Below, one piece after another: positions 5,889 through 56,670 of a stretch of 64,000 nucleotides of DNA (positions within the stretch are counted from its first letter, which is position 1; every line of letters starts with the position of its first letter). A program made the translations under genes and the position numbers. Below the pieces are notes generated by a model. The model ran no database searches and was not told the DNA's origin. It saw nothing but the letters and a program-made list of their open reading frames with translations. Origin of the DNA: an uncultured bacterium (GTDB taxonomy: Bacteria; Patescibacteriota; Patescibacteriia; Patescibacteriales; UBA12465); contig OW818634.1 in NCBI GenBank assembly GCA_942492765.1, positions 217,159-281,158 on the forward strand. Direction: 5' to 3'.

Positions 5889-6794
5889 TCAATTCTTCTC
5901 TAACCACTTCGCAAATTCTTCCCCGCTCCTGCTTCCCGGGCGCAAGCGAGTGATGAGCCAACGATTTTCCGGCTTATGATTCGTGCCCGGAATGACAGAC
6001 AAAGCGCCAAGATAACCGGCATGCTTCATGATTTCTAAGATTTGATAATTATAATATCCGTAAGGATAAGCAAAAGTCAGGACTGGCTGACCGATCATCT
6101 TTTCCAGCTCGCCCTTGCTGCCCTTGATCTCGAAGACGGCGTCCGCTTCTTGCTTCAGGCGCAGATCCGGATGATTGAAAGTATGCGAACCGATTTCAAC
6201 AAAGCCGCTCGCGGCCATTTCCTGGAGCTGGGCTTTAGTGATATAGCCCGGCTTATCCAGCGCATTGATAATTACGTAAAAAGTCCCTTTCAGATTATAT
6301 TTCTTGAGCAACGGGAAAGCATTGATATAGAAATCTTCATAGCCGTCGTCAAACGTCAGAGCGATCGTCTTCGTAGTCGAAGCGCCACTCACGATAGCAG
6401 CCGCCATCTGAGACATAAAGACCGTCTGATAGCCGATTTTAGCTATCTCCTGAAGCTGATTTTCGAATATTGCCGGATGAAGATAGAGACCAGGCAGAGT
6501 CGTCGTGGCCGGAGCTGCGGAAATATAATGATACATCAGGATAGGTGCATGAACGAAAGCAACCCGCGACGGCGAGGGCGGAGTTAATATAGAAGACGCC
6601 GCGGCGCTAGAAGAAGCCGAGGCAGTGATTCCGATCAATGCGGATGAAGAGGCTTTAGAAACTATCAGATTAGCGCTATCAAGATTATTAGCGCGCGCGT
6701 AAAAATCCGCCAGCCAAAAAAGTCCGGCGGCGACGGTTAGAAAGATTATTATCTTTAGCGCTAAGAGCTTAGCGCTTGGCTTTGACACGATCAT
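5889..6794 (-). CDS. polysaccharide deacetylase (NodB-homology) family protein
   Basis: LTFDDGYEDFY...GSHTFNHPDL NodB motifs; N-terminal TM anchor. Confidence 0.85.
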   Translation of the reverse strand: MIVSKPSAKLLALKIIIFLTVAAGLFWLADFYARANNLDSANLIVSKASSSALIGITASASSSAAASSILTPPSPSRVAFVHAPILMYHYISAAPATTTLPGLYLHPAIFENQLQEIAKIGYQTVFMSQMAAAIVSGASTTKTIALTFDDGYEDFYINAFPLLKKYNLKGTFYVIINALDKPGYITKAQLQEMAASGFVEIGSHTFNHPDLRLKQEADAVFEIKGSKGELEKMIGQPVLTFAYPYGYYNYQILEIMKHAGYLGALSVIPGTNHKPENRWLITRLRPGSRSGEEFAKWLEKN

Positions 6795-8553
6795 TTTCCG
6801 TTAGATATTGCTTGCGGAGACGGATGCTCTTAGGAGTGATTTCTAAGTATTCGTCTTCATTCATGATGCTTAAAGCGCGTTCTAGGGTAAGTTCCAAAGG
6901 AGGAGTGAGAAGAATAGCTTCATCAGAACCGGAAGCGCGGACGTTAGTCAACTGCTTGCCCTTGATCGGGTTGACATTCATATCGTTACCCTTAGCAACA
7001 TTGCCGATGACCATGCCTTCATAGACTTCGGTGTTCGGAGAAATATAGATACTGCCTCTGTCCTGCAGGTTCCATAGGGAGAAGGCTAACGCCTTGCCGG
7101 TCGCCATGGATACCATGGAACCGAGGCGATTCTTCTCGATTTCGCCGGCATAAGGTTTGAAGCCGGAGAAATGGGTGCACAAAATGCCTTCGCCGCGAGT
7201 ATCGACGACGAATTCATTGCGATAGCCGAGCAAGCCGCGAGTCGGGATCTCAAAGATGAGTCGAGCTTGGCCATTATGATTCTTCATATCTTCCATGCGG
7301 CCTTTGCGCTTGGAAACCTTCTCCATGATGACGCCGGTCTGAGCTTCAGGAATATCAATAGTGACCTCTTCATAAGGCTCCATCTTCACGCCGTTCTCTT
7401 CTCTGATAATGACCTGAGGCTGTGAGACCTGGAGCTCGTAATTCTCACGGCGCAGATTTTCCAATAAAATCGCGATATGTAATTCGCCGCGGCCGAAAAC
7501 CTTATAAGAATTAGTATCGGAAAAATCGATCTTCAAGCCGACGTTAACTTCTAATTCTTTCTCTAGACGTTCCTTGATCTGGCGGTTAGTGACAAATTTC
7601 CCTTCTTTGCCAGCGAACGGAGAATTATTGACTAAGAAGCTTAAGGAGATAGTCGGTTCATCAATCTTGATAGCCGGAAGCGGGGATTGTTCAGATGATT
7701 CAGCAATAGTCTCGCCGATATAGATATCAGGCAGGCCCGCGACCATGACGATGTCGCCCGCGACCGCTTCGGCTACTTCCTGGCGGCCGATACCCTTGAA
7801 AGTGAAGAGCTTGGTCGTCTTGCCCTGGCGGGTTTCGCCGTTAAGATTCTCGACATAGACAGTCTGTCCAGTTCTGATCTTGCCTTCATAGACACGGCAG
7901 ATGGCCAAGCGTCCCAAGAAATTATCATAAGCGAGATTGAAAGGTTGGGCCAAGAGCTGCTTAGATTCCAATACCGGATCAGAAGACGGCTTAACATGCT
8001 CAAGCACTAAGTCTAAGAGCGGATCAAGATTATCAGATTCGTCAGTTAGTTGACGCTTAGCAAAGCCCTGTTTAGAAGCGGCATAGATGACCGGGAAATC
8101 TAATTGTTCATCAGTCGCGCCTAAATCCAAAAATAATTCATAAACCATTTCGGAAACTGCCTCCGGACGAGCGGCTGGCTTATCGATTTTATTGATAACG
8201 ACAATCGGCTTCAAGCCTAACTCTAAAGATTTCTTCAACACGAATTTAGTCTGAGGCATCGGGCCTTCCTGAGCGTCGACGAGCAGCAAGACACAGTCAA
8301 TAGAACGCAGGATGCGCTCAACTTCAGAGCTGAAATCGGCATGGCCTGGAGTATCGACGATATTTATCTTGGTATCACGATAAAAGACCGAAGTATTCTT
8401 CGAATAGATGGTGATTCCCCGCTCTTTTTCGAGGTCATTTGAGTCCATGCTGACGCCGCCGTCGTTCATGCCGGTCTGGCGCATCAAGGCATCGGTTAAA
8501 GTAGTTTTGCCGTGATCGACGTGAGCGATAATGGCGATGTTTCTGATTTCCAT
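6769..8553 (-). CDS. typA: translational GTPase TypA/BipA
   Basis: 594 aa; [31 protein letters not shown]-motifs and BipA-type C-terminus. Confidence 0.95.
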   Translation of the reverse strand: MEIRNIAIIAHVDHGKTTLTDALMRQTGMNDGGVSMDSNDLEKERGITIYSKNTSVFYRDTKINIVDTPGHADFSSEVERILRSIDCVLLLVDAQEGPMPQTKFVLKKSLELGLKPIVVINKIDKPAARPEAVSEMVYELFLDLGATDEQLDFPVIYAASKQGFAKRQLTDESDNLDPLLDLVLEHVKPSSDPVLESKQLLAQPFNLAYDNFLGRLAICRVYEGKIRTGQTVYVENLNGETRQGKTTKLFTFKGIGRQEVAEAVAGDIVMVAGLPDIYIGETIAESSEQSPLPAIKIDEPTISLSFLVNNSPFAGKEGKFVTNRQIKERLEKELEVNVGLKIDFSDTNSYKVFGRGELHIAILLENLRRENYELQVSQPQVIIREENGVKMEPYEEVTIDIPEAQTGVIMEKVSKRKGRMEDMKNHNGQARLIFEIPTRGLLGYRNEFVVDTRGEGILCTHFSGFKPYAGEIEKNRLGSMVSMATGKALAFSLWNLQDRGSIYISPNTEVYEGMVIGNVAKGNDMNVNPIKGKQLTNVRASGSDEAILLTPPLELTLERALSIMNEDEYLEITPKSIRLRKQYLTENDRVKAKR

Positions 8554-8623
8554 ATGATAAGGCTAAGATTAAATAAAATAAAAAAATTACGCACCTGACG
8601 TAATTTAAATTAGGTCTTTTGAG

Positions 8624-8652
8624 ATATTACCTTATTTCTTAATAACAGTCAA
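8624..8652 (-). promoter_or_regulatory. sigma70-type promoter TTGACT-17-TAATAT for typA
   Basis: Reverse complement of 8647-8652 is TTGACT; of 8624-8629 is TAATAT; 17-nt spacer. Confidence 0.6.
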
Positions 8653-8659
8653 GAGCAAT

Positions 8660-8686
8660 AAAAAACCCGTTACGAATAACGGGTTT
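8660..8686 (-). terminator. intrinsic terminator after IMPCH-like gene A
   Basis: AAACCCGTTA-(4-nt loop)-TAACGGGTTT stem, then a U-run on the minus strand. Confidence 0.85.
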
Positions 8687-8722
8687 ATTAAAACCTTAGA
8701 GTTTTTTTAACCTCTATCATGA

Positions 8723-9409
8723 CTATTGCTTGCCTATTATCTGATAGGATTTTTCGACATTGGAAAAATCTAAAGGGCTCAAATATTCAGCGATAGCTGT
8801 ATCATATTCGCTCAAGGCCTTGAAGGTGCGCTTAGCGGCGATAAAGCGCTGCTCTAAAGAGGTGCGGCCCCTGAAAAAATTAAGCTGCTGCACGAAAGCG
8901 GCATAGCTTTCAGGGTCAGTCAGGGTCATGACCCGATGGAAGTTCTTAGCAGCTGCTCTCAAAGCCGATGGCCCGCCGACATCGATATTGCCGCGGGCAT
9001 TCTCAAAATTACAATCTTGAGAAACGACTTTCTGAAAAGGATAGAGATTGATGATCAAGAGATCGATAGGAATAGCTCTTTCTCGGTTCATATCATCCTG
9101 ATGAGCTTCGCAATAAGTTTCCGTCAAATATCCTAGGAATAGCTTATGATGCAGAGTTTTAACTAGTCCACCCTCAGTTTCTGGCTGATGGGTATATTCC
9201 CCTACTTCAAATAGCTGAGCGCCAGCTGTCTTCTCGTCAAGCATCTGCTTGATGAAGCTATAAGTCCCGCCGCTAGAAATTATCCTGATGCCGGGACAGG
9301 CAGCCATCAAGGCTGGAACTAAGAACTCCAGGCCGTTCTTATCTGAAACCGATATGACGGCCGTTTTGACCTGGACAAGATCGTCCACTTTTTCTACTGG
9401 TCTAATCAT
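8723..9409 (-). CDS. stand-alone IMP cyclohydrolase-like protein (PurH N-terminal MGS-like domain only)
   Basis: 228 aa colinear with the first ~200 aa of PurH: SVSDK, SSGGT, KTLHHK, NLYPF, NIDVGGP, AAKN; no AICAR formyltransferase domain; AGGAG Shine-Dalgarno 9 nt upstream. Confidence 0.75.
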   Translation of the reverse strand: MIRPVEKVDDLVQVKTAVISVSDKNGLEFLVPALMAACPGIRIISSGGTYSFIKQMLDEKTAGAQLFEVGEYTHQPETEGGLVKTLHHKLFLGYLTETYCEAHQDDMNRERAIPIDLLIINLYPFQKVVSQDCNFENARGNIDVGGPSALRAAAKNFHRVMTLTDPESYAAFVQQLNFFRGRTSLEQRFIAAKRTFKALSEYDTAIAEYLSPLDFSNVEKSYQIIGKQ

Positions 9410-9475
9410 GACTTGGATCTCCTTTTTTTTGGTTAATAATCGAAATATTTATATTCAATTTTGAAAGAATGTTTA

Positions 9476-9504
9476 ATATTATAATTAAACGCTAAAGATG
9501 TCAA
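9476..9504 (-). promoter_or_regulatory. sigma70-type promoter TTGACA-17-TAATAT
   Basis: rc(9499-9504)=TTGACA; rc(9476-9481)=TAATAT. Confidence 0.65.
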
Positions 9505-9506
9505 AT

Positions 9507-9540
9507 AAAAAACCCGCTATCTTTGGCAGACAACGGGTTT
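9507..9540 (-). terminator. intrinsic terminator (pairs fully only in minus-strand RNA via G-U wobbles)
   Basis: CCCGUUGU...AUAGCGGG 8-bp stem followed by U6 on the minus strand. Confidence 0.7.
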
Positions 9541-9564
9541 AAGAATCTAAATATCAGATTCTTG

Positions 9565-10296
9565 CTATTTCTTTTTCCTTTTAGACTCTTCAGCTTTTTC
9601 GGCAGCCAAGAAGTCTGCGACAGTGTTCTGCATTTCATAGCAGGCTTCAGCCTCTTCAGCTTGGATGCCTCCTAAGAAATAATCGATTTCGGAACTATAG
9701 GCCTTTAGATAGCTAGAAGCTTTCTTGGCCATCTCCAGGCGCGAACTAAAGCTCGTCCGGCCCTTGAATCTTTTTATCTCTTCCAAGAAAGCGCCGTAAT
9801 CGTCAGGACTCGATAGGGTCATGACTTGACGCGGATTTGATCGAGCAGCGGATAAAGCGACTTGACCGGCGACATCGATACGCGTCGAGACGCTCTCAAA
9901 ATCGTTCGGACCTGTCTCTAAAATTATCGGCCGAAGATTTATGATCGCCAGATCAATAGGGATGGCCTGAGCATTCCTGATCATCTCCTGATGCTTAGAG
10001 CAATAAGTCTTGCTTAGCAAACCGAGAAAGACTTTCGGCTGTAAAGTTTCTAGAGCCGTGCCATTAACATCAAGATCTCTTACTAATTGTCCGAAGCTCA
10101 AGAGATTGTCCCAAATTTTTTCCCGCGGCATCAGCTTGCTGATGTTTGGGTAATTATTATCAGTCGCATAAATCACGACATTGGGGCAATGTTCTATGAG
10201 CCCGGGTATTAAACTGTCCAGACAGCTAGTGTCTGAAACCAGAATCATCACTTTCTTAACCTCAACGAGGTCGTCGATTTTACTTACCATTCTCAT
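9565..10296 (-). CDS. divergent paralog of the IMPCH-like domain protein with degraded signature motifs
   Basis: 243 aa colinear with 8723-9409 product, but motifs read LVSDT, ATDNN, ETLQPK, NLRPI, RIDVAGQ, AARSN; Lys/Glu-rich C-terminal tail. Confidence 0.6.
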   Translation of the reverse strand: MRMVSKIDDLVEVKKVMILVSDTSCLDSLIPGLIEHCPNVVIYATDNNYPNISKLMPREKIWDNLLSFGQLVRDLDVNGTALETLQPKVFLGLLSKTYCSKHQEMIRNAQAIPIDLAIINLRPIILETGPNDFESVSTRIDVAGQVALSAARSNPRQVMTLSSPDDYGAFLEEIKRFKGRTSFSSRLEMAKKASSYLKAYSSEIDYFLGGIQAEEAEACYEMQNTVADFLAAEKAEESKRKKK

Positions 10297-10367
10297 CTTA
10301 ATGATTTTAGTAAAACATTAAAGCGGTAAAGGCCACTTTTTCATTTGTGTTTTTAAAGAATTTTTTA

Positions 10368-10395
10368 ATTGTATTACTTTACGATATTTTGTCAA
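10368..10395 (-). promoter_or_regulatory. sigma70-type promoter TTGACA-16-TACAAT
   Basis: rc(10390-10395)=TTGACA; rc(10368-10373)=TACAAT. Confidence 0.6.
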
Positions 10396-10426
10396 TAGAA
10401 AAACCGCGCTAAGAGTGCATAAGTCG

Positions 10427-10451
10427 AAAAAAGACCCGAAACTTTCGGGCC
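10427..10451 (-). terminator. intrinsic terminator after ABC-F gene
   Basis: GGCCCGA-loop-UCGGGUC hairpin then U6 on the minus strand. Confidence 0.75.
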
Positions 10452-10482
10452 TTTCATCTTAATTCAGTATATTTTAAGCGGC

Positions 10483-11934
10483 TTATAATTTTCCTAGATC
10501 CAATTCTTCAGTCATCTTGATCTCTTTAACGAACTCCGGCATATGGCTGACCATAATGATCGGACCGTCATAGGCGTTGACCGCTTCGGCGATAACCGGA
10601 ATATGGCGGAAATTTATATGGTTAGTCGGCTCGTCGAGGATGAGTATTCCCGGGCGCATCAGGACCAGGCGCGCGAAGGCGAGCAGGCCTTTCTGTCCTT
10701 CAGATAAGTCGCCGATCTTATGCCCCATCAGGTCGCCGGTAATCAGGAAACCAGCCGCGATCGAACGGATATCTTGCTCTCCCCAGCCGTCGCCGGCGTT
10801 CTTCAGCGAATCAAAGACGGTCTCATTAAAATCCAGAGTCGAGAAGTCTTGGCTATAATAACCGACGCGGATATTCTTAGCGATGCTCTGCCCTTCCTGC
10901 TTGCCGCTGACGAGCGAGCGCAGGAGCGTGCTCTTGCCGATGCCGTTAGGGCCGACGACGAGCAAGCGATCCTTCTTGCGCAGGACCTTATCAATATCCT
11001 TCAATATCGGCTCGTGATTCTTAATGAGCCTGATTTTCTTTAAGACGACGATCTCGCCGCTCAGTTCTTCCTGGACAGGAATATCGAAATCCCTGATCGT
11101 CTTGTCTTCTTGGCGGACATCGACCATATTCTCTTCTAGATCTTCAGTTTCATCCTTGAGCTTCTTCGCGAGCTTGCGCATCTTGCCGCCCTTATGAGCG
11201 AAGAAGTTGACTTTCTCCTTGCGGTCGATGATCTGCTTCTGCAGCTGGGCATTCTCACGCTGTTCGCGTTCGACGCGACGACTGATCTCTTCAACGACAG
11301 AATAATAATCGCCGACATACATCTCGGTCTTATGCGTAAAATTATTGAGATAGATGACGCCTTCGGTAAAGCAATTCAAGAAATCAGCATCATGAGAGAT
11401 GACGAGCACGGTCTTGTCATACATGACAAGGAAAGTGATGAGATGGTCGATACCGTCCTTATCAAGATTATTCGTCGGCTCGTCGAGCAAGAGGATGTCC
11501 GGGTCCTGAATCAAGGCATAGGCTAATAACAGGCGCGCTTGCTGGCCGCCGGACAAGCCGCCGACTTTGCGATCCAAGGGGATATTGAAATTGACCGCGT
11601 CGAGCGCCTTACTGATCCGGCTCTTAATGTTTCCTGGAACGACCGCGAACGCCTTGGAAAAATATTCTTCTATATTAAGATCAAAGAATTCCCGAGACAT
11701 GGTCTGGGCGGCCGCGCCGATGGTCGCGTTGCTAGAAATGGAAATCTGGCCGCTTTTCGGAGTCAGCTCTTTCTTGATTAAGCCGAAGATCGTGCTCTTA
11801 CCAGCGCCGTTCTGACCCATCAGAGTCATTTTCGCGCCTTTGCGCATGCTAAAATCAGCCTCATCGAGGATGGGCTTCTTATGGAGATATTCAAATTTGA
11901 CGCTATCGAATCTAAGCACGACTTCTTCAGCCAT
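10483..11934 (-). CDS. ABC-F family ATPase (two nucleotide-binding domains, no TM domain)
   Basis: Two Walker A sites (GQNGAGKST, GPNGIGKST), two LSGGQ-like signatures (LSGGQQ, LSEGQK), charged inter-domain linker. Confidence 0.9.
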   Translation of the reverse strand: MAEEVVLRFDSVKFEYLHKKPILDEADFSMRKGAKMTLMGQNGAGKSTIFGLIKKELTPKSGQISISSNATIGAAAQTMSREFFDLNIEEYFSKAFAVVPGNIKSRISKALDAVNFNIPLDRKVGGLSGGQQARLLLAYALIQDPDILLLDEPTNNLDKDGIDHLITFLVMYDKTVLVISHDADFLNCFTEGVIYLNNFTHKTEMYVGDYYSVVEEISRRVEREQRENAQLQKQIIDRKEKVNFFAHKGGKMRKLAKKLKDETEDLEENMVDVRQEDKTIRDFDIPVQEELSGEIVVLKKIRLIKNHEPILKDIDKVLRKKDRLLVVGPNGIGKSTLLRSLVSGKQEGQSIAKNIRVGYYSQDFSTLDFNETVFDSLKNAGDGWGEQDIRSIAAGFLITGDLMGHKIGDLSEGQKGLLAFARLVLMRPGILILDEPTNHINFRHIPVIAEAVNAYDGPIIMVSHMPEFVKEIKMTEELDLGKL

Positions 11935-29574: not shown

Positions 29575-30966
29575 TTAGAATTCGGCGTTCTTAGGCGTGC
29601 GCGGGAACGGGATGACATCGCGGATATTGGCCATGCCAGTCAGATACATTATGGCCCGCTCGAAGCCGAGGCCGAAGCCGGCATGCTTGACCGAGCCGAA
29701 ACGGCGCAGATCCAGATACCACTGATAATCTTCCAGCTTCATATTCATCTCCTCCATGCGCTTTATGAGCTTATCAAGATTCTCTTCCCTCTGGCTGCCG
29801 CCGATGAGCTCGCCGATGCCTGGAACCAATAAGTCCATAGCGGCAACGGTCTTACCATCATCGTTCAGGCGCATATAGAAAGCTTTAATGTCTTTAGGAT
29901 AATCAATGACGAAGACCGGCTTCTGAAAGACTTTATCAGTCAGATAACGCTCATGTTCGGTCTGCAGATCGATTCCCCATTTTACCGGGAAAGCGAATTT
30001 CTCGCCGGATTTTTCTAAGATAGCGATCGCTTCGGTATAAGTGACGCGGCCGAATTCGGCGCTAACGATATTGTTCAGACGTTCTAAGAGACCGGTGTCG
30101 ATGAACTTATTGAAGAACTCCATCTCTTCCGGCAATTCTTTCAAGACATGAGCGATCAGGTATTTCAGCATCTTTTCGGCGAGCGCCATATCATCTTCTA
30201 AATCGGCGAAAGCCATCTCCGGCTCCATCATCCAGAATTCGGAAGCGTGGCGGGTCGTATTCGAATTTTCCGCGCGGAAGGTCGGACCGAAAGTATAGAC
30301 CTTATTCAAGCCCATGACCAAGGCTTCGGCATTAAGCTGGCCGCTGACGGTCAGGCCGGCCTTCTTGCCGAAAAAATCTTCGCTATAATCAATCTCGCCT
30401 TTCTTGTCTTTAGGGGTATTCTTCAAGTCCAAAGTAGTCACCTGAAACATCTCGCCCGCGCCTTCGGCGTCACTCGTAGAAATTATCGGGGTATGGACAT
30501 AAGAGAAGCCTTCTTCCTGGAAAAATTTATGGATAGCGTAACTAAGGGAAGAGCGCAGGCGGAAGACAGCGGAAAAAGTATTGCTGCGGCCGCGCAGATG
30601 CGCGATCTCGCGCAAGAATTCAAAGCTATGCTTTTTTTTCTGGAGCGGATAATCTTCTGGGGCGCGGCTGATGACCGTGATGGTCTCAGCCTTGAGCTCG
30701 AAAGCTTGGCCGGCCGCGGGAGACGCGACGAGTTCGCCGGCGACTTCCAAAGACGAGCCGACGCTGATATTTTCCACTTCGGAAAAATTCTTCAGGCCGC
30801 CCTCGAAGACGATCTGCAGGCTCTTGAAGAATGAGCCGTCATTAAGTTCGATAAAGCCAAATTCTTTCGAAGAACGCGCGGTTCTGACCCAGCCAGCAAC
30901 ACCGATCTTCTTATTAAGATAAGCTGGCGTCTCTTTGTATAATGATCTTATAGAAGTGTAAGGCAT
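29575..30966 (-). CDS. asnS: asparagine--tRNA ligase
   Basis: 463 aa class IIb; [21 protein letters not shown] and C-terminal [27 protein letters not shown]. Confidence 0.9.
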
Positions 30967-30991
30967 ATGAAAAATAATAAATTACGGAAAA

Positions 30992-32293
30992 TTACGGAGT
31001 CAATCTCTTGACGTCTCGAGGCAGGAAGCAGGCTTCCTTGACGCTCGGCAGATCCAGCATCTTCATCACGATGCGCCCCGGCCCCATGCCGATGCCGCTA
31101 TGTCCTGGGCAGCCGTAGCGGAAGAAATTCAGATAATTCTCCAGCTCTTCCAGATTCATACCCTTCTCGACCGCTTGCTTCTCTAAGACATCTATTCTGT
31201 GCTCGCGCTGCGAGCCGGTCGTAATCTCTAAGCCGCGATAGAGCAAGTCGAAACTCTTGGTCAATTCCGGATTATCCTGATGGCGCATATGATAGAAAGG
31301 GCGAGCGGCAATCGGATAATCGGTCACGAAGACGAAATCATGGCCGGTCTCTTGCTTGATGATATTGCCTAATTCCTTCTCTTCTTCGGTCGAGAAATCA
31401 AAATCCTTCTCGCTCTTTATTCCGGCCGCTTTTAATTTTTCCTTAGCGGCCGCGAGAGTGATCTTTGGGAAAGGCTTGGACGGAACTTCAACGGCTAATC
31501 CCAAATCTTCCTTGACCTTGGTAAATCCGGAAATCAAGAGATCCTCCTCGATGCTCATCACTTCATTATAGTCGATGAAAGAGACTTCGAGATCCCAGCC
31601 GGTGAATTCAGTCACATGGCGGCTGGTAAAAGACGGTTCGGCGCGAAAGACCGTGCCGACCATGAAAACTTTTTCTAAGCCGGAAGCCATGGCCATCTGC
31701 TTATAAAATTGAGGGGATTGGGAAAGATAAGCCTTGCGGTCGAAGTATTTCACTTCAAAGACTTCGGAACCGGTTTCAGAAGCGGTATTCATGAAGCACG
31801 GCGTATAGATCTGGATAAAATTATTCTTCAGCCAATACTCGCGGCAGCCCGCTTCCAGCTTTGTCCAAACCTTGAAGATGAGCTGATGCTCTTCTTGACG
31901 CAAATCCAGCCAGCGCCAGTCAAAACGGTTTTCCGAATTCGCTTCATTATCCGCTTTTGTCAGGACCGGAATCGGCAGATTCTCGTTCGCTAAAGAAATC
32001 AGCTCCGCGCTGGAAGCGGCGAGCTCAAAATCTTTGACCGGATTCGGATCATTCTTCTTAGCTGGCTTTTCCTGCAGAGTTCCGATGACGGTGATGACGC
32101 TTTCGAGGGTCAATTTCTCCGCCAATTCATAACCGCCTTGGCCAGACACGAAAACGACCTGCATCGATCCGGAAATATCGCGCAGATCCACGAAGACTAT
32201 GCCTTTATGGGCGCGCAAATTCCTGACCCAGCCCGAGACAGTCACTTCTCCGCTGCCTTGTTTTTTAGCATCAGCAATCAATATCCTTGACAT
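30992..32293 (-). CDS. aspS: aspartate--tRNA ligase, archaeal/eukaryotic type (short form)
   Basis: 433 aa, lacks the bacterial insertion domain; FRAEPSFTSRH, GSQREH, GIGMGPGRIVM. Confidence 0.9.
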   Translation of the reverse strand: MSRILIADAKKQGSGEVTVSGWVRNLRAHKGIVFVDLRDISGSMQVVFVSGQGGYELAEKLTLESVITVIGTLQEKPAKKNDPNPVKDFELAASSAELISLANENLPIPVLTKADNEANSENRFDWRWLDLRQEEHQLIFKVWTKLEAGCREYWLKNNFIQIYTPCFMNTASETGSEVFEVKYFDRKAYLSQSPQFYKQMAMASGLEKVFMVGTVFRAEPSFTSRHVTEFTGWDLEVSFIDYNEVMSIEEDLLISGFTKVKEDLGLAVEVPSKPFPKITLAAAKEKLKAAGIKSEKDFDFSTEEEKELGNIIKQETGHDFVFVTDYPIAARPFYHMRHQDNPELTKSFDLLYRGLEITTGSQREHRIDVLEKQAVEKGMNLEELENYLNFFRYGCPGHSGIGMGPGRIVMKMLDLPSVKEACFLPRDVKRLTP

Positions 32294-48992: not shown

Positions 48993-49376
48993 TTACTCGA
49001 TTTCTTGCGCTTTATCCTTTACTTTCGAAGGGATTTGCCAAGCCTTCTTAGGCTTATTCTCTTCCCCCAAGAAAACAGAATTTTCTCGATTTTTCCACAT
49101 CGAGATTTCGCGATTAATCTTATCAGTTAAATCTTCTTCTGTCAAATTTTCCTTTTCTTCGGAATTTGCTGATAAATCAGCCATAATCGGGGTATTCGCC
49201 GGAGTCTCCTGGATATTCACAGCTTTCGGGGACGGAGCAGAATCCAAACCAACGGCATAATTATCAAATCCCATGATTACGTAAGAATCATCCGGAGCGC
49301 TAGCGTCGAAGATGATCACCCGATCGCCCGTCTTCTTCACTAGGTTTAAGATTTTTTTTAACTGTTCTGAAAACAT
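48993..49376 (-). CDS. hypothetical acidic 127-aa protein inserted between fusA and tuf
   Basis: ORF track; starts 8 nt after the fusA stop; no family recognised. Confidence 0.55.
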   Translation of the reverse strand: MFSEQLKKILNLVKKTGDRVIIFDASAPDDSYVIMGFDNYAVGLDSAPSPKAVNIQETPANTPIMADLSANSEEKENLTEEDLTDKINREISMWKNRENSVFLGEENKPKKAWQIPSKVKDKAQEIE

Positions 49377-55969: not shown

Positions 55970-55990
55970 ATGAAGAAAAGATAAAGTCCT
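55970..55990. repeat. direct repeat copy 1: ATGAAGAAAAGATAAAGTCCT
   Basis: Identical 21-mer at 56774-56794; overlaps the higA stop codon. Confidence 0.95.
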
Positions 55991-56312
55991 AATCGCAAAC
56001 TACTTTTTCGGAGTATTTAACAGTCTTGATGGAAAATCCTGGAAAAATTAAAGTCGCGCCGGTAGCATCGGCGATTCTCTTCAGGAAGCTCAAACTAGGC
56101 AGACCGACGTCGCCGCATTCCAATCTAGCAATGCTAGATTGCTTGGTATTCAACTTCTTAGCTAAAGCAGCCTGAGAGAAACCGCATTGTATCCGTAATC
56201 TTTTTACTTTTCTGCCTATTTCATAGGCTAAATCCGGTTCTGTATAGGCTTTGGCAAACTCCGGGTTCTTCATCAGCTCTCTTTTTACCTCCTCATGAGT
56301 TATTGTTTTCAT
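55989..56312 (-). CDS. higA: HigA-type antitoxin, XRE-family HTH
   Basis: RLRIQCGFSQAALAKKLNTKQSSIARLECGD HTH; lies downstream of the toxin. Confidence 0.8.
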   Translation of the reverse strand: MKTITHEEVKRELMKNPEFAKAYTEPDLAYEIGRKVKRLRIQCGFSQAALAKKLNTKQSSIARLECGDVGLPSLSFLKRIADATGATLIFPGFSIKTVKYSEKVVCD

Positions 56313-56325
56313 ATAAAGGATGAAC

Positions 56326-56670
56326 TTAAATTAAATTATTCAATCTTCTCAAAGCTAAATTAATTTCCTGTTTTTTAAGTTTTTGTTCTTTTTTATTAAA
56401 AATATTCAAAATAACAACATCTTCTCCGACAATACTGAATAAAGTTCTATAAATAATATTACCGGAACATCTAGTCCTTAGTTCCCAAAGATTTTTTACT
56501 CCGGTTACTTTTCCAAGATCCGCCGTCCGACTAAGATAACCCGATCCAAAATCTGCCAAAAGATTTATATCGATAACGATTGCAGCGGCTTGGCGCTGAT
56601 CGGATAATGTACTTATGTATTTTAAAACCGGAGCATTGCCCGAAGCATTACTATAATATTTTATCTCCAT
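56326..56670 (-). CDS. higB: HigB-type toxin, RelE/ParE superfamily (Gp49-like)
   Basis: 114 aa; LWELRTRCSGNIIYRTLFSIVGEDVVILNIFNKKEQKLKKQEI pattern of Gp49/HigB toxins; toxin-first gene order. Confidence 0.75.
   Translation of the reverse strand: MEIKYYSNASGNAPVLKYISTLSDQRQAAAIVIDINLLADFGSGYLSRTADLGKVTGVKNLWELRTRCSGNIIYRTLFSIVGEDVVILNIFNKKEQKLKKQEINLALRRLNNLI

Follow-up and report, generated by a model that had tools for sequence, protein, structure and literature searches.

We describe two adjacent genes, A and B, on the minus strand of a 64,000-nucleotide stretch of DNA (hereafter the window) from an uncultured Patescibacteriota bacterium (assembly GCA_942492765.1, contig OW818634.1, positions 217,159 to 281,158 of the forward strand). 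Both encode single-domain proteins related to the N-terminal inosine monophosphate (IMP) cyclohydrolase (IMPCH) domain of the bifunctional purine biosynthesis protein PurH/ATIC. The explanation that we favour, with a probability of roughly 0.55, is that A still works as an IMP cyclohydrolase but has been orphaned, and that B is a repurposed, independently acting paralogue that does not carry out this reaction. To judge from its residues, A would be a genuine unfused PurH2 that closes formyl-5-aminoimidazole-4-carboxamide ribonucleotide (FAICAR; the unformylated form is AICAR) to IMP. Its status in the present genome is probably that of an orphan, or close to it, and its loss in sister lineages suggests that it might be a remnant on its way out. 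B would be an old, clade-specific duplicate of the A gene, in which the fold was kept and 5'-phosphate binding as well as canonical ring closure were lost. Most likely it is retained by selection for another role, in which the remodelled pocket may accommodate another small ligand or bind a protein partner; B may also have a new enzymatic activity. The pair itself might be what remains of a larger block (B, a purM-like gene, A) whose dismantling is under way in this lineage: the locus of this genome lacks the purM-like gene, and A appears to have been deleted in the closest relatives by recombination between terminator hairpins. It is B and the tandem arrangement of A and B that are new, A being an already known kind of protein.

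Domain identity and active-site residues

Both open reading frames lie on the minus strand where the sequence-only reading had placed them (Table 1), and its proposal that they are stand-alone IMPCH domains of the PurH type was borne out by profile and structure searches. The two proteins share 36% identity over 223 residues (E 7e-51), B aligning to A over its full length. In the NCBIfam PurH model NF002049, residues 13-221 of A correspond to positions 4-204 of 510 (174 bits, E 4e-51) and residues 81-223 of B to positions 65-208 (61 bits, E 1e-16); the part of PurH with which A and B are colinear is its N-terminal ~200 residues. Since the AICAR formyltransferase (AICARFT) half is missing, both scores are far below the full-length cutoff of 402. 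Neither protein qualifies as bifunctional PurH by the NF002049 and TIGR00355 equivalogs, the alignments ending at model positions 204-208 with the AICARFT domain absent. In Pfam, A matched MGS and only positions 1-59 of AICARFT_IMPCHas, and the same positions 1-59 gave the sole, sub-threshold match of B. Among proteins in the PDB, A matched PurH N-terminal domains by sequence with E 1e-23 to 2e-29, the best of them being the PurH of the 50S-50S dimer of Methanosarcina acetivorans (9ou7); the matches of B to these proteins were weaker.

The AlphaFold2 (AF2) models of both proteins were confident, with predicted local distance difference test (pLDDT) values of 94.6 for A and 93.5 for B. In Foldseek the best matches of A were PurH IMPCH domains (E 2e-17, template modelling (TM) score 0.79, range 0.76-0.80), and B matched PurH and the stand-alone protein ForH with E 3e-13, its TM scores to PurH IMPCH domains being 0.67-0.73. 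As against these values of 1e-13 to 1e-17 for PurH and ForH, methylglyoxal synthase (MGS) and the allosteric domain of carbamoyl-phosphate synthetase (CPSase) were reached only at ~1e-2. Membership of A or B in a methylglyoxal synthase or CPSase-type MGS family, a doubt that had been raised beforehand, was ruled out by Foldseek together with the profile scores.

Active-site residues were compared, in human ATIC numbering, in an alignment of 121 unfused homologues, the six B-type proteins and ATIC; the human ATIC sequence was compared against the avian alignment. Lys66, Tyr104, Asp125 and Lys137 are named as key residues of human IMPCH (Vergis & Beardsley 2004, cited by PMC3261824), and Arg64, the equivalent of which is Arg65 in Cryptococcus neoformans, lies around the active site together with Thr67, Ile126 and Gly127 (PMC9525906). 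In A, K14, the SGGT loop, K66, Y104, D125 and K137 are all retained; among the 121 unfused homologues K14, T37, Y104, D125 and K137 show no variation, and 120 of the proteins have K66. At the position of Arg64, A and every one of the 121 homologues have Leu, and this includes the member from Desulforapulum, where purH is split into two genes, so Leu is probably compatible with activity.

B presents a different picture. It had been suggested that three of the four catalytic residues are lost in B, and this is what the alignment gives: K66E, Y104R and K137S, with D125 retained; N102 and N138 are also kept. The 5'-phosphate clamp, intact in A, is gone as well, K14 being replaced by Thr and G35-G36-T37 by DNN (a TDNN loop). 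The motif strings behind that suggestion are present as quoted, SVSDK, SSGGT, KTLHHK, NLYPF, NIDVGGP and AAKN in A and LVSDT, ATDNN, ETLQPK, NLRPI, RIDVAGQ and AARSN in B. Because both the phosphate clamp and three of the four catalytic residues have been lost, B would be unable to catalyse the conversion of FAICAR to IMP. The B-type proteins agree in these features: Glu66 is found in all six of them, position 104 is Arg, Ala or Ser, position 137 is Ser or Ala, and the phosphate loop is degraded. They also have new invariant residues (N37, I106, R123 and Q129), which point to a rebuilt pocket rather than to random decay.

Two further divergent B-like proteins were seen among public sequences: P0252 has E66 and S137, and P0254 keeps K66 and has R104 and A137. 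To judge by these residues, both may represent intermediate stages of active-site degeneration.

A is a member of a large, already known family of unfused PurH2 proteins, and an unfused PurH2 is in itself nothing new. All of the 120 best homologues of A have lengths of 212-270 amino acids (aa); they come from Patescibacteria, Desulfobacterales and some archaeal-labelled bins; a Falkowbacteria member is already named 'PurH2' in GenBank, and AF1811, an unfused PurH2 of archaeal origin, has activity in vitro and can complement E. coli (PMC6797443). Two subtypes could be recognized: KTLHH, to which A and the examined Patescibacteria members belong, and KTLDF, found in Desulfobacterales and in one Woesearchaeota-labelled protein. 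The GC content (overall and at third codon positions) is 0.46 and 0.49 for A and 0.45 and 0.50 for B, near the window average. Horizontal acquisition of A was considered and found no support, the identities of A to its orthologues tracking those of B and BipA.

Conservation of B and its independence of A

B is rare. A word-indexed search with B yielded five relatives, and a sixth was found in L007 (related loci are designated here by L and a number); a metagenome scan with the B-type alignment gave 3 loci, 2 of them already known, which confirms the rarity; and an exhaustive profile search of 1.84 billion representatives (50% identity) returned about four B-type proteins before A-type proteins took over. 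B is confined to one narrow Paceibacteria clade. In a neighbour-joining tree it is nested inside the Patescibacteria KTLHH subtype, the position of its long branch being weak.

Within this clade B ORFs are intact (235-252 aa) in six lineages, with identities to the orthologues of 46-88%. The ratio of nonsynonymous to synonymous substitution rates (dN/dS) of B was 0.075 against L013, 0.087 against L001 and 0.16 against L014, compared with 0.10-0.13 for A and ~0.03 for BipA and ABC-F; the values are approximate, because dS is high (0.9 to above 2). Catalytic residue loss, purifying selection and conservation across lineages, the marks of a pseudoenzyme, are therefore found together in B.

It could be argued that B is a decaying pseudogene or a functionless remnant of a tandem duplication, since its catalytic and phosphate-binding residues are lost, an obvious Shine-Dalgarno sequence is missing before its start codon and it evolves faster than A (57% against 71% identity between the window and L014). 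Such decay is hardly credible in view of intact frames that persist down to 46-48% identity, the low dN/dS, an invariant promoter-like site, the invariant residues specific to B and the retention of B where A was lost; the confident AF2 model also predicts a well-folded protein. Because the frames are intact and conserved across lineages and dN/dS is purifying, B appears from its sequence to be a conserved, fast-evolving paralogue and not a pseudogene.

The sequence-only reading had pictured A and B as an active/inactive heterodimer, in which the dead subunit would regulate or stabilise the live IMP cyclohydrolase. The genes are adjacent and paralogous, they are found together in the window, L007 and L014, and PurH's N-terminal domains add to dimer contacts (PMC12605026), but each IMPCH site is made by a single monomer (PMC9525906). 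Moreover, the nearest relatives (L013, L001/L018 and L004) have B at the locus and no A, most A-type genes of Patescibacteria have no B beside them (about four B representatives, as opposed to A-like proteins in the thousands), promoter- and terminator-like signals are separate for the two genes, and in some relatives a PurM-like gene separates B from A. An obligate heterodimer is unlikely because of B without A in three lineages, the many A without B, the separate signals and the one-monomer sites, and we regard any form of the heterodimer as quite improbable. Vergis et al. reportedly found in 2001 that cyclohydrolase activity is independent of dimerisation, which also counts against it.

The conserved new pocket residues of B and its survival without A argue instead for an independent role. 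The B family would then be a natural case of an IMPCH fold that has no catalytic apparatus, is still under selection and has outlived its active paralogue in sister lineages, and from the ligand or partner of B a novel use of the fold among ultra-small symbiotic bacteria would become apparent.

Gene order, transcription signals and purine context

Table 1. Positions of A and B, of their putative signals and of neighbouring genes (window positions unless a locus is named)
Feature	Position	Strand	Length or basis
Gene A, unfused PurH2-type IMP cyclohydrolase, Patescibacteria KTLHH subtype	8723..9409	minus	228 aa
Gene B, divergent IMPCH-fold paralogue with remodelled pocket	9565..10296	minus	243 aa
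bipA/typA, translational GTPase, downstream neighbour	6769..8553	minus	Pfam annotation of orthologues and gene order
ABC-F ATPase, upstream neighbour	10483..11934	minus	gene order
Promoter-like TTGACA-16-TACAAT upstream of B	10368..10395	minus	consensus scan, 11/12 matches
Small hairpin within the putative 5' leader of B	10320..10339	minus	hairpin scan
Terminator-like hairpin and T-run 3' of B	9510..9540	minus	13-pair stem, then TTTTTATTT
Promoter-like TTGACA-17-TAATAT upstream of A	9476..9504	minus	consensus scan, 10/12 matches
Shine-Dalgarno-like AAGGAG 5' of the A start codon	9419..9424	minus	direct reading of the sequence
Terminator-like hairpin and T-run 3' of A	8663..8686	minus	10-pair stem
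PurM-like gene, relative	L014:8879-10090		
PurM-like gene, relative	L007:2175-3374		
PurM-like gene, relative	L010:10746-11972		
PurM-like gene, relative	L020:1718-2191		

It had been stated that A and B are separately transcribed. Each gene does have promoter- and terminator-like signals of its own; these are consensus matches, which fall short of proving transcription units, so the separate transcription of the two genes is putative. The promoter-like site of B is identical across L013, L001 and L004, and paired substitutions preserve the stem of the leader hairpin in the same three loci (in an alignment read by eye). A clear Shine-Dalgarno sequence is absent ahead of the B start codon, unlike that of A; with its second Met as the start, which is the choice made in the public gene call, B would be 241 aa long. 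The terminator after A and that after B have AAACCCGTT...CGGGTTTTTTATT in common, and AAACCCGTT occurs at no other site of the window. An Rfam scan of positions 8400-10700 at permissive E-values gave nothing near a gathering score, and no ZTP or purine riboswitch.

Apart from this, a hairpin followed by a T-run (AATTACGTCAGGTGCGTAATTTTTTTATTTT) lies at 8582-8612 (minus strand), between the promoter-like site and the start codon of bipA. It is preserved with hardly a base changed in five lineages and resembles a leader attenuator or terminator of bipA.

The gene order of the window is ABC-F, B, A, BipA. It is ABC-F, B, BipA in L013 (B 88% identical) and ABC-F, B, a PemK gene on the opposite strand, BipA in L001/L018 (B 81%) and L004 (B 46%). 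In L014/L019 (B 57%) and L007 (B 52%) we found B, a PurM-like gene of 399-403 aa, A and BipA; L020 has B and, further on, a PurM-like gene, L010 has A, BipA and a PurM-like gene, and L009 has A and BipA. Accordingly bipA is syntenic with IMPCH-like genes in the window and in L001, L004, L007, L009, L010, L013 and L014, and the synteny of ABC-F with B extends over the window, L013, L001 and L004. The opposite-strand gene at the position of A encodes a PemK-family toxin (L001:6922-7338, L004:6941-7354, L018:10925-11338).

On the simplest reading of these orders, an ancestral block of B, the purM-like gene and A stood at the edge of a conserved bipA block; the loss of the purM-like gene would fall in the ABC-F sub-lineage and would have been followed by that of A in three of the four sampled members of this sub-lineage. 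From the locus of the nearest relatives (L013, L001/L018 and L004) A is gone and B is kept. The spacer between B and BipA in L013 (L013:4316-4466) is seemingly a hybrid of the two terminator-containing spacers of the window; together with the relatedness of the terminators this suggests that A was deleted by recombination between the two repeats. The stepwise loss of the block would offer a snapshot of how a purine pathway disappears during genome reduction.

The intervening PurM-like protein (399-408 aa) matched PDB entries 3mdo and 3kiz with E 1e-38, both structural-genomics entries designated 'putative PurM', and TIGR00878 purM with 63-68 bits, under its cutoff; no Pfam family was matched at gathering score. 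The idea that the 399-408-aa gene between B and A might be a cryptic AICARFT was ruled out by the 3mdo/3kiz and TIGR00878 matches. The family is widespread in Patescibacteria (543 matches). A tblastn search of the 64 kilobases (kb) with the PurM-like protein found no such gene in the window, and none of the best 120 of the 543 matches comes from the 895,742-bp source contig, which carries A and B; a purM-like gene is thus probably absent from this genome. At another locus, L021, the PurM-like gene stands beside a two-domain OMPdecase and Pribosyltran gene that seems to be a PyrF-PyrE fusion, and in the vicinity of a gene with the N-terminal domain of phosphoribosyl pyrophosphate synthetase (Pribosyltran_N).

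The observation that the window holds no other purine gene, AICARFT included, was corroborated: tblastn with the 416-aa Desulforapulum PurH1 found no AICARFT gene in the window or in L001-L004 and L007-L020, Pfam gene lists show none in L024 and L025, and Pfam scans of 30 non-ribosomal ORFs of the window detected no purine gene. The accompanying statement that candidate phyla radiation (CPR) bacteria lack the pathway was too general. Several Patescibacteria reconstructions agree with it, as they show no de novo nucleotide synthesis (PMC9530719, PMC12281837, PMC11809585), but in one survey 32% of 399 metagenome-assembled genomes (MAGs) from the CPR were scored complete for de novo IMP synthesis (PMC11608272), and relatives hold the PurM-like gene between B and A. 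Automatic annotation (Joint Genome Institute, JGI, names) calls short proteins of the A/B type bifunctional 'purH'. This naming of PurH2-only proteins can inflate the purine-pathway completeness of Patescibacteria reconstructions, and their PurH2-only status, with no formyltransferase gene linked to them, is a practical correction to annotation. A literature search linking IMP cyclohydrolase to Patescibacteria or CPR found no paper on these genes.

The same results bear on the view that we face an ordinary split purH, with an AICAR formyltransferase (PurH1-only or PurP) and the other pathway genes encoded at loci not linked to this one, A being the housekeeping last step and B a side issue. 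In Desulforapulum a member of the same family stands 4 base pairs (bp) upstream of a 416-aa AICARFT-only gene, PurH2 being followed by PurH1 in a plain split purH; the PurM-like gene adjoins A in relatives, A is well conserved (dN/dS ~0.1) and the survey figure cited above points the same way. Nevertheless, we consider this view unlikely, since neither AICARFT nor any other pur gene was met in the 64-kb window or in the CPR loci examined around A-type genes, no PurM-like match among the best 120 traces to the source contig, the reconstructions without de novo synthesis speak against it, and the loss of A at the locus in the three nearest lineages would be unexpected for an essential pathway step.

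A very improbable alternative, drawn by analogy, would make B above all, and possibly A, a partner of BipA and/or ABC-F on the 50S subunit, the bacterial counterpart of an archaeal PurH-aEF2 factor for 50S dimerisation (hibernation). In Methanosarcina acetivorans full-length PurH and the EF-G-family GTPase aEF2 assemble into a heterotetramer by which two 50S subunits are bridged (PDB 9ou7; PMC12605026), the IMPCH-like genes of the present clade always stand directly upstream of bipA, with B directly downstream of the ABC-F gene, and B was kept after its purine-related neighbours had been lost, a retention that such a role would explain. However, the adjacency to bipA is limited to one close clade with BipA proteins 85-98% identical, and it is missing at the distant Patescibacteria A-type loci L012, L017 (a Paceibacteria contig) and L024, so the synteny may be an inherited gene order rather than a functional link. 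The genes also have separate transcription signals, and the archaeal complex uses full-length PurH, both domains of which touch the 50S subunit.

Several points weigh against our favoured explanation of an orphaned cyclohydrolase A and a repurposed B. A may not be orphaned, as the pathway search covered the 64-kb window, and the absence of A in the relatives with B only holds for this locus alone. With Leu in place of Arg64, substrate handling by A could differ from that of fused PurH. B could be an enzyme with new chemistry, to judge from the retained D125, N102 and N138 and the new invariant polar residues. The approximate nature of the dN/dS values and the weak placement of the long B branch have to be counted here too.

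Some further observations concern other genes. At L024:14-6803 and L025:14-6803, in another Patescibacteria genome, five complete tandem genes that consist of the phosphoenolpyruvate (PEP)-utilizers (phosphohistidine swivel) domain only, and a sixth cut by the end of the locus, adjoin an A-type PurH2 homologue; a PEP-utilizers gene lies near the A-type gene in L012 too. In the window, on the minus strand, there are a gene pair for a Gp49-like (HigB-type) toxin and a helix-turn-helix (HTH) antitoxin (55989-56670), a pair of neighbouring paralogues for class II (D/K/N-type) aminoacyl-tRNA synthetases, 463 and 433 aa long and probably representing AsnRS and AspRS (29575-32293), and a 127-aa ORF with no Pfam match that lies in the str operon, where it separates the gene for EF-G from that for EF-Tu (48993-49376).

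Comparison with known systems

The closest counterparts of A are the unfused PurH2 proteins of Archaeoglobus fulgidus (AF1811) and Desulforapulum autotrophicum HRM2, the latter 48-50% identical to A. Like them, A is a single-domain protein of ~227 aa, colinear with residues 1 to ~200 of PurH, and it retains the phosphate clamp as well as all four catalytic residues. In contrast to the Desulforapulum gene, with its formyltransferase gene next to it, A has no linked formyltransferase, and the archaeal PurH2 is part of a complete pathway. Furthermore, the Desulforapulum protein is of the KTLDF subtype and A of the Patescibacteria-specific KTLHH one, and neither of these systems has a counterpart of B.

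ForH (PDB 6nko), from the formycin cluster of Streptomyces kaniharaensis, is likewise a stand-alone protein of the IMPCH fold, ~200 aa in length, and is part of a biosynthetic cluster for C-nucleosides (PMC7118188). TM scores normalised to the length of ForH are 0.80-0.86 for A and B alike, but in sequence the matches (E 4e-17 for A, 9e-5 for B) are weaker than those to PurH. No genes of a formycin- or pyrazofurin-type cluster were found around A and B, the neighbours being bipA, ABC-F, polysaccharide deacetylase, LemA and a TPM-domain (PF04536) gene.

With the methanogen PurH2-aEF2 factor (9ou7) the present locus shares the combination of an IMPCH protein with a GTPase of the EF-G family, which consists here of a genomic pairing with bipA alone. 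The archaeal factor consists of full-length, catalytically competent PurH and aEF2; the synteny seen here is restricted to one clade.

Compared with the bifunctional PurH/ATIC proteins (human, avian, M. tuberculosis and C. neoformans), both A and B have the same fold and order of motifs and lack the AICARFT domain. A has the same catalytic residues and differs by the Arg64 to Leu exchange, whereas B departs from these enzymes by K66E, Y104R and K137S and by the disappearance of the phosphate loop.

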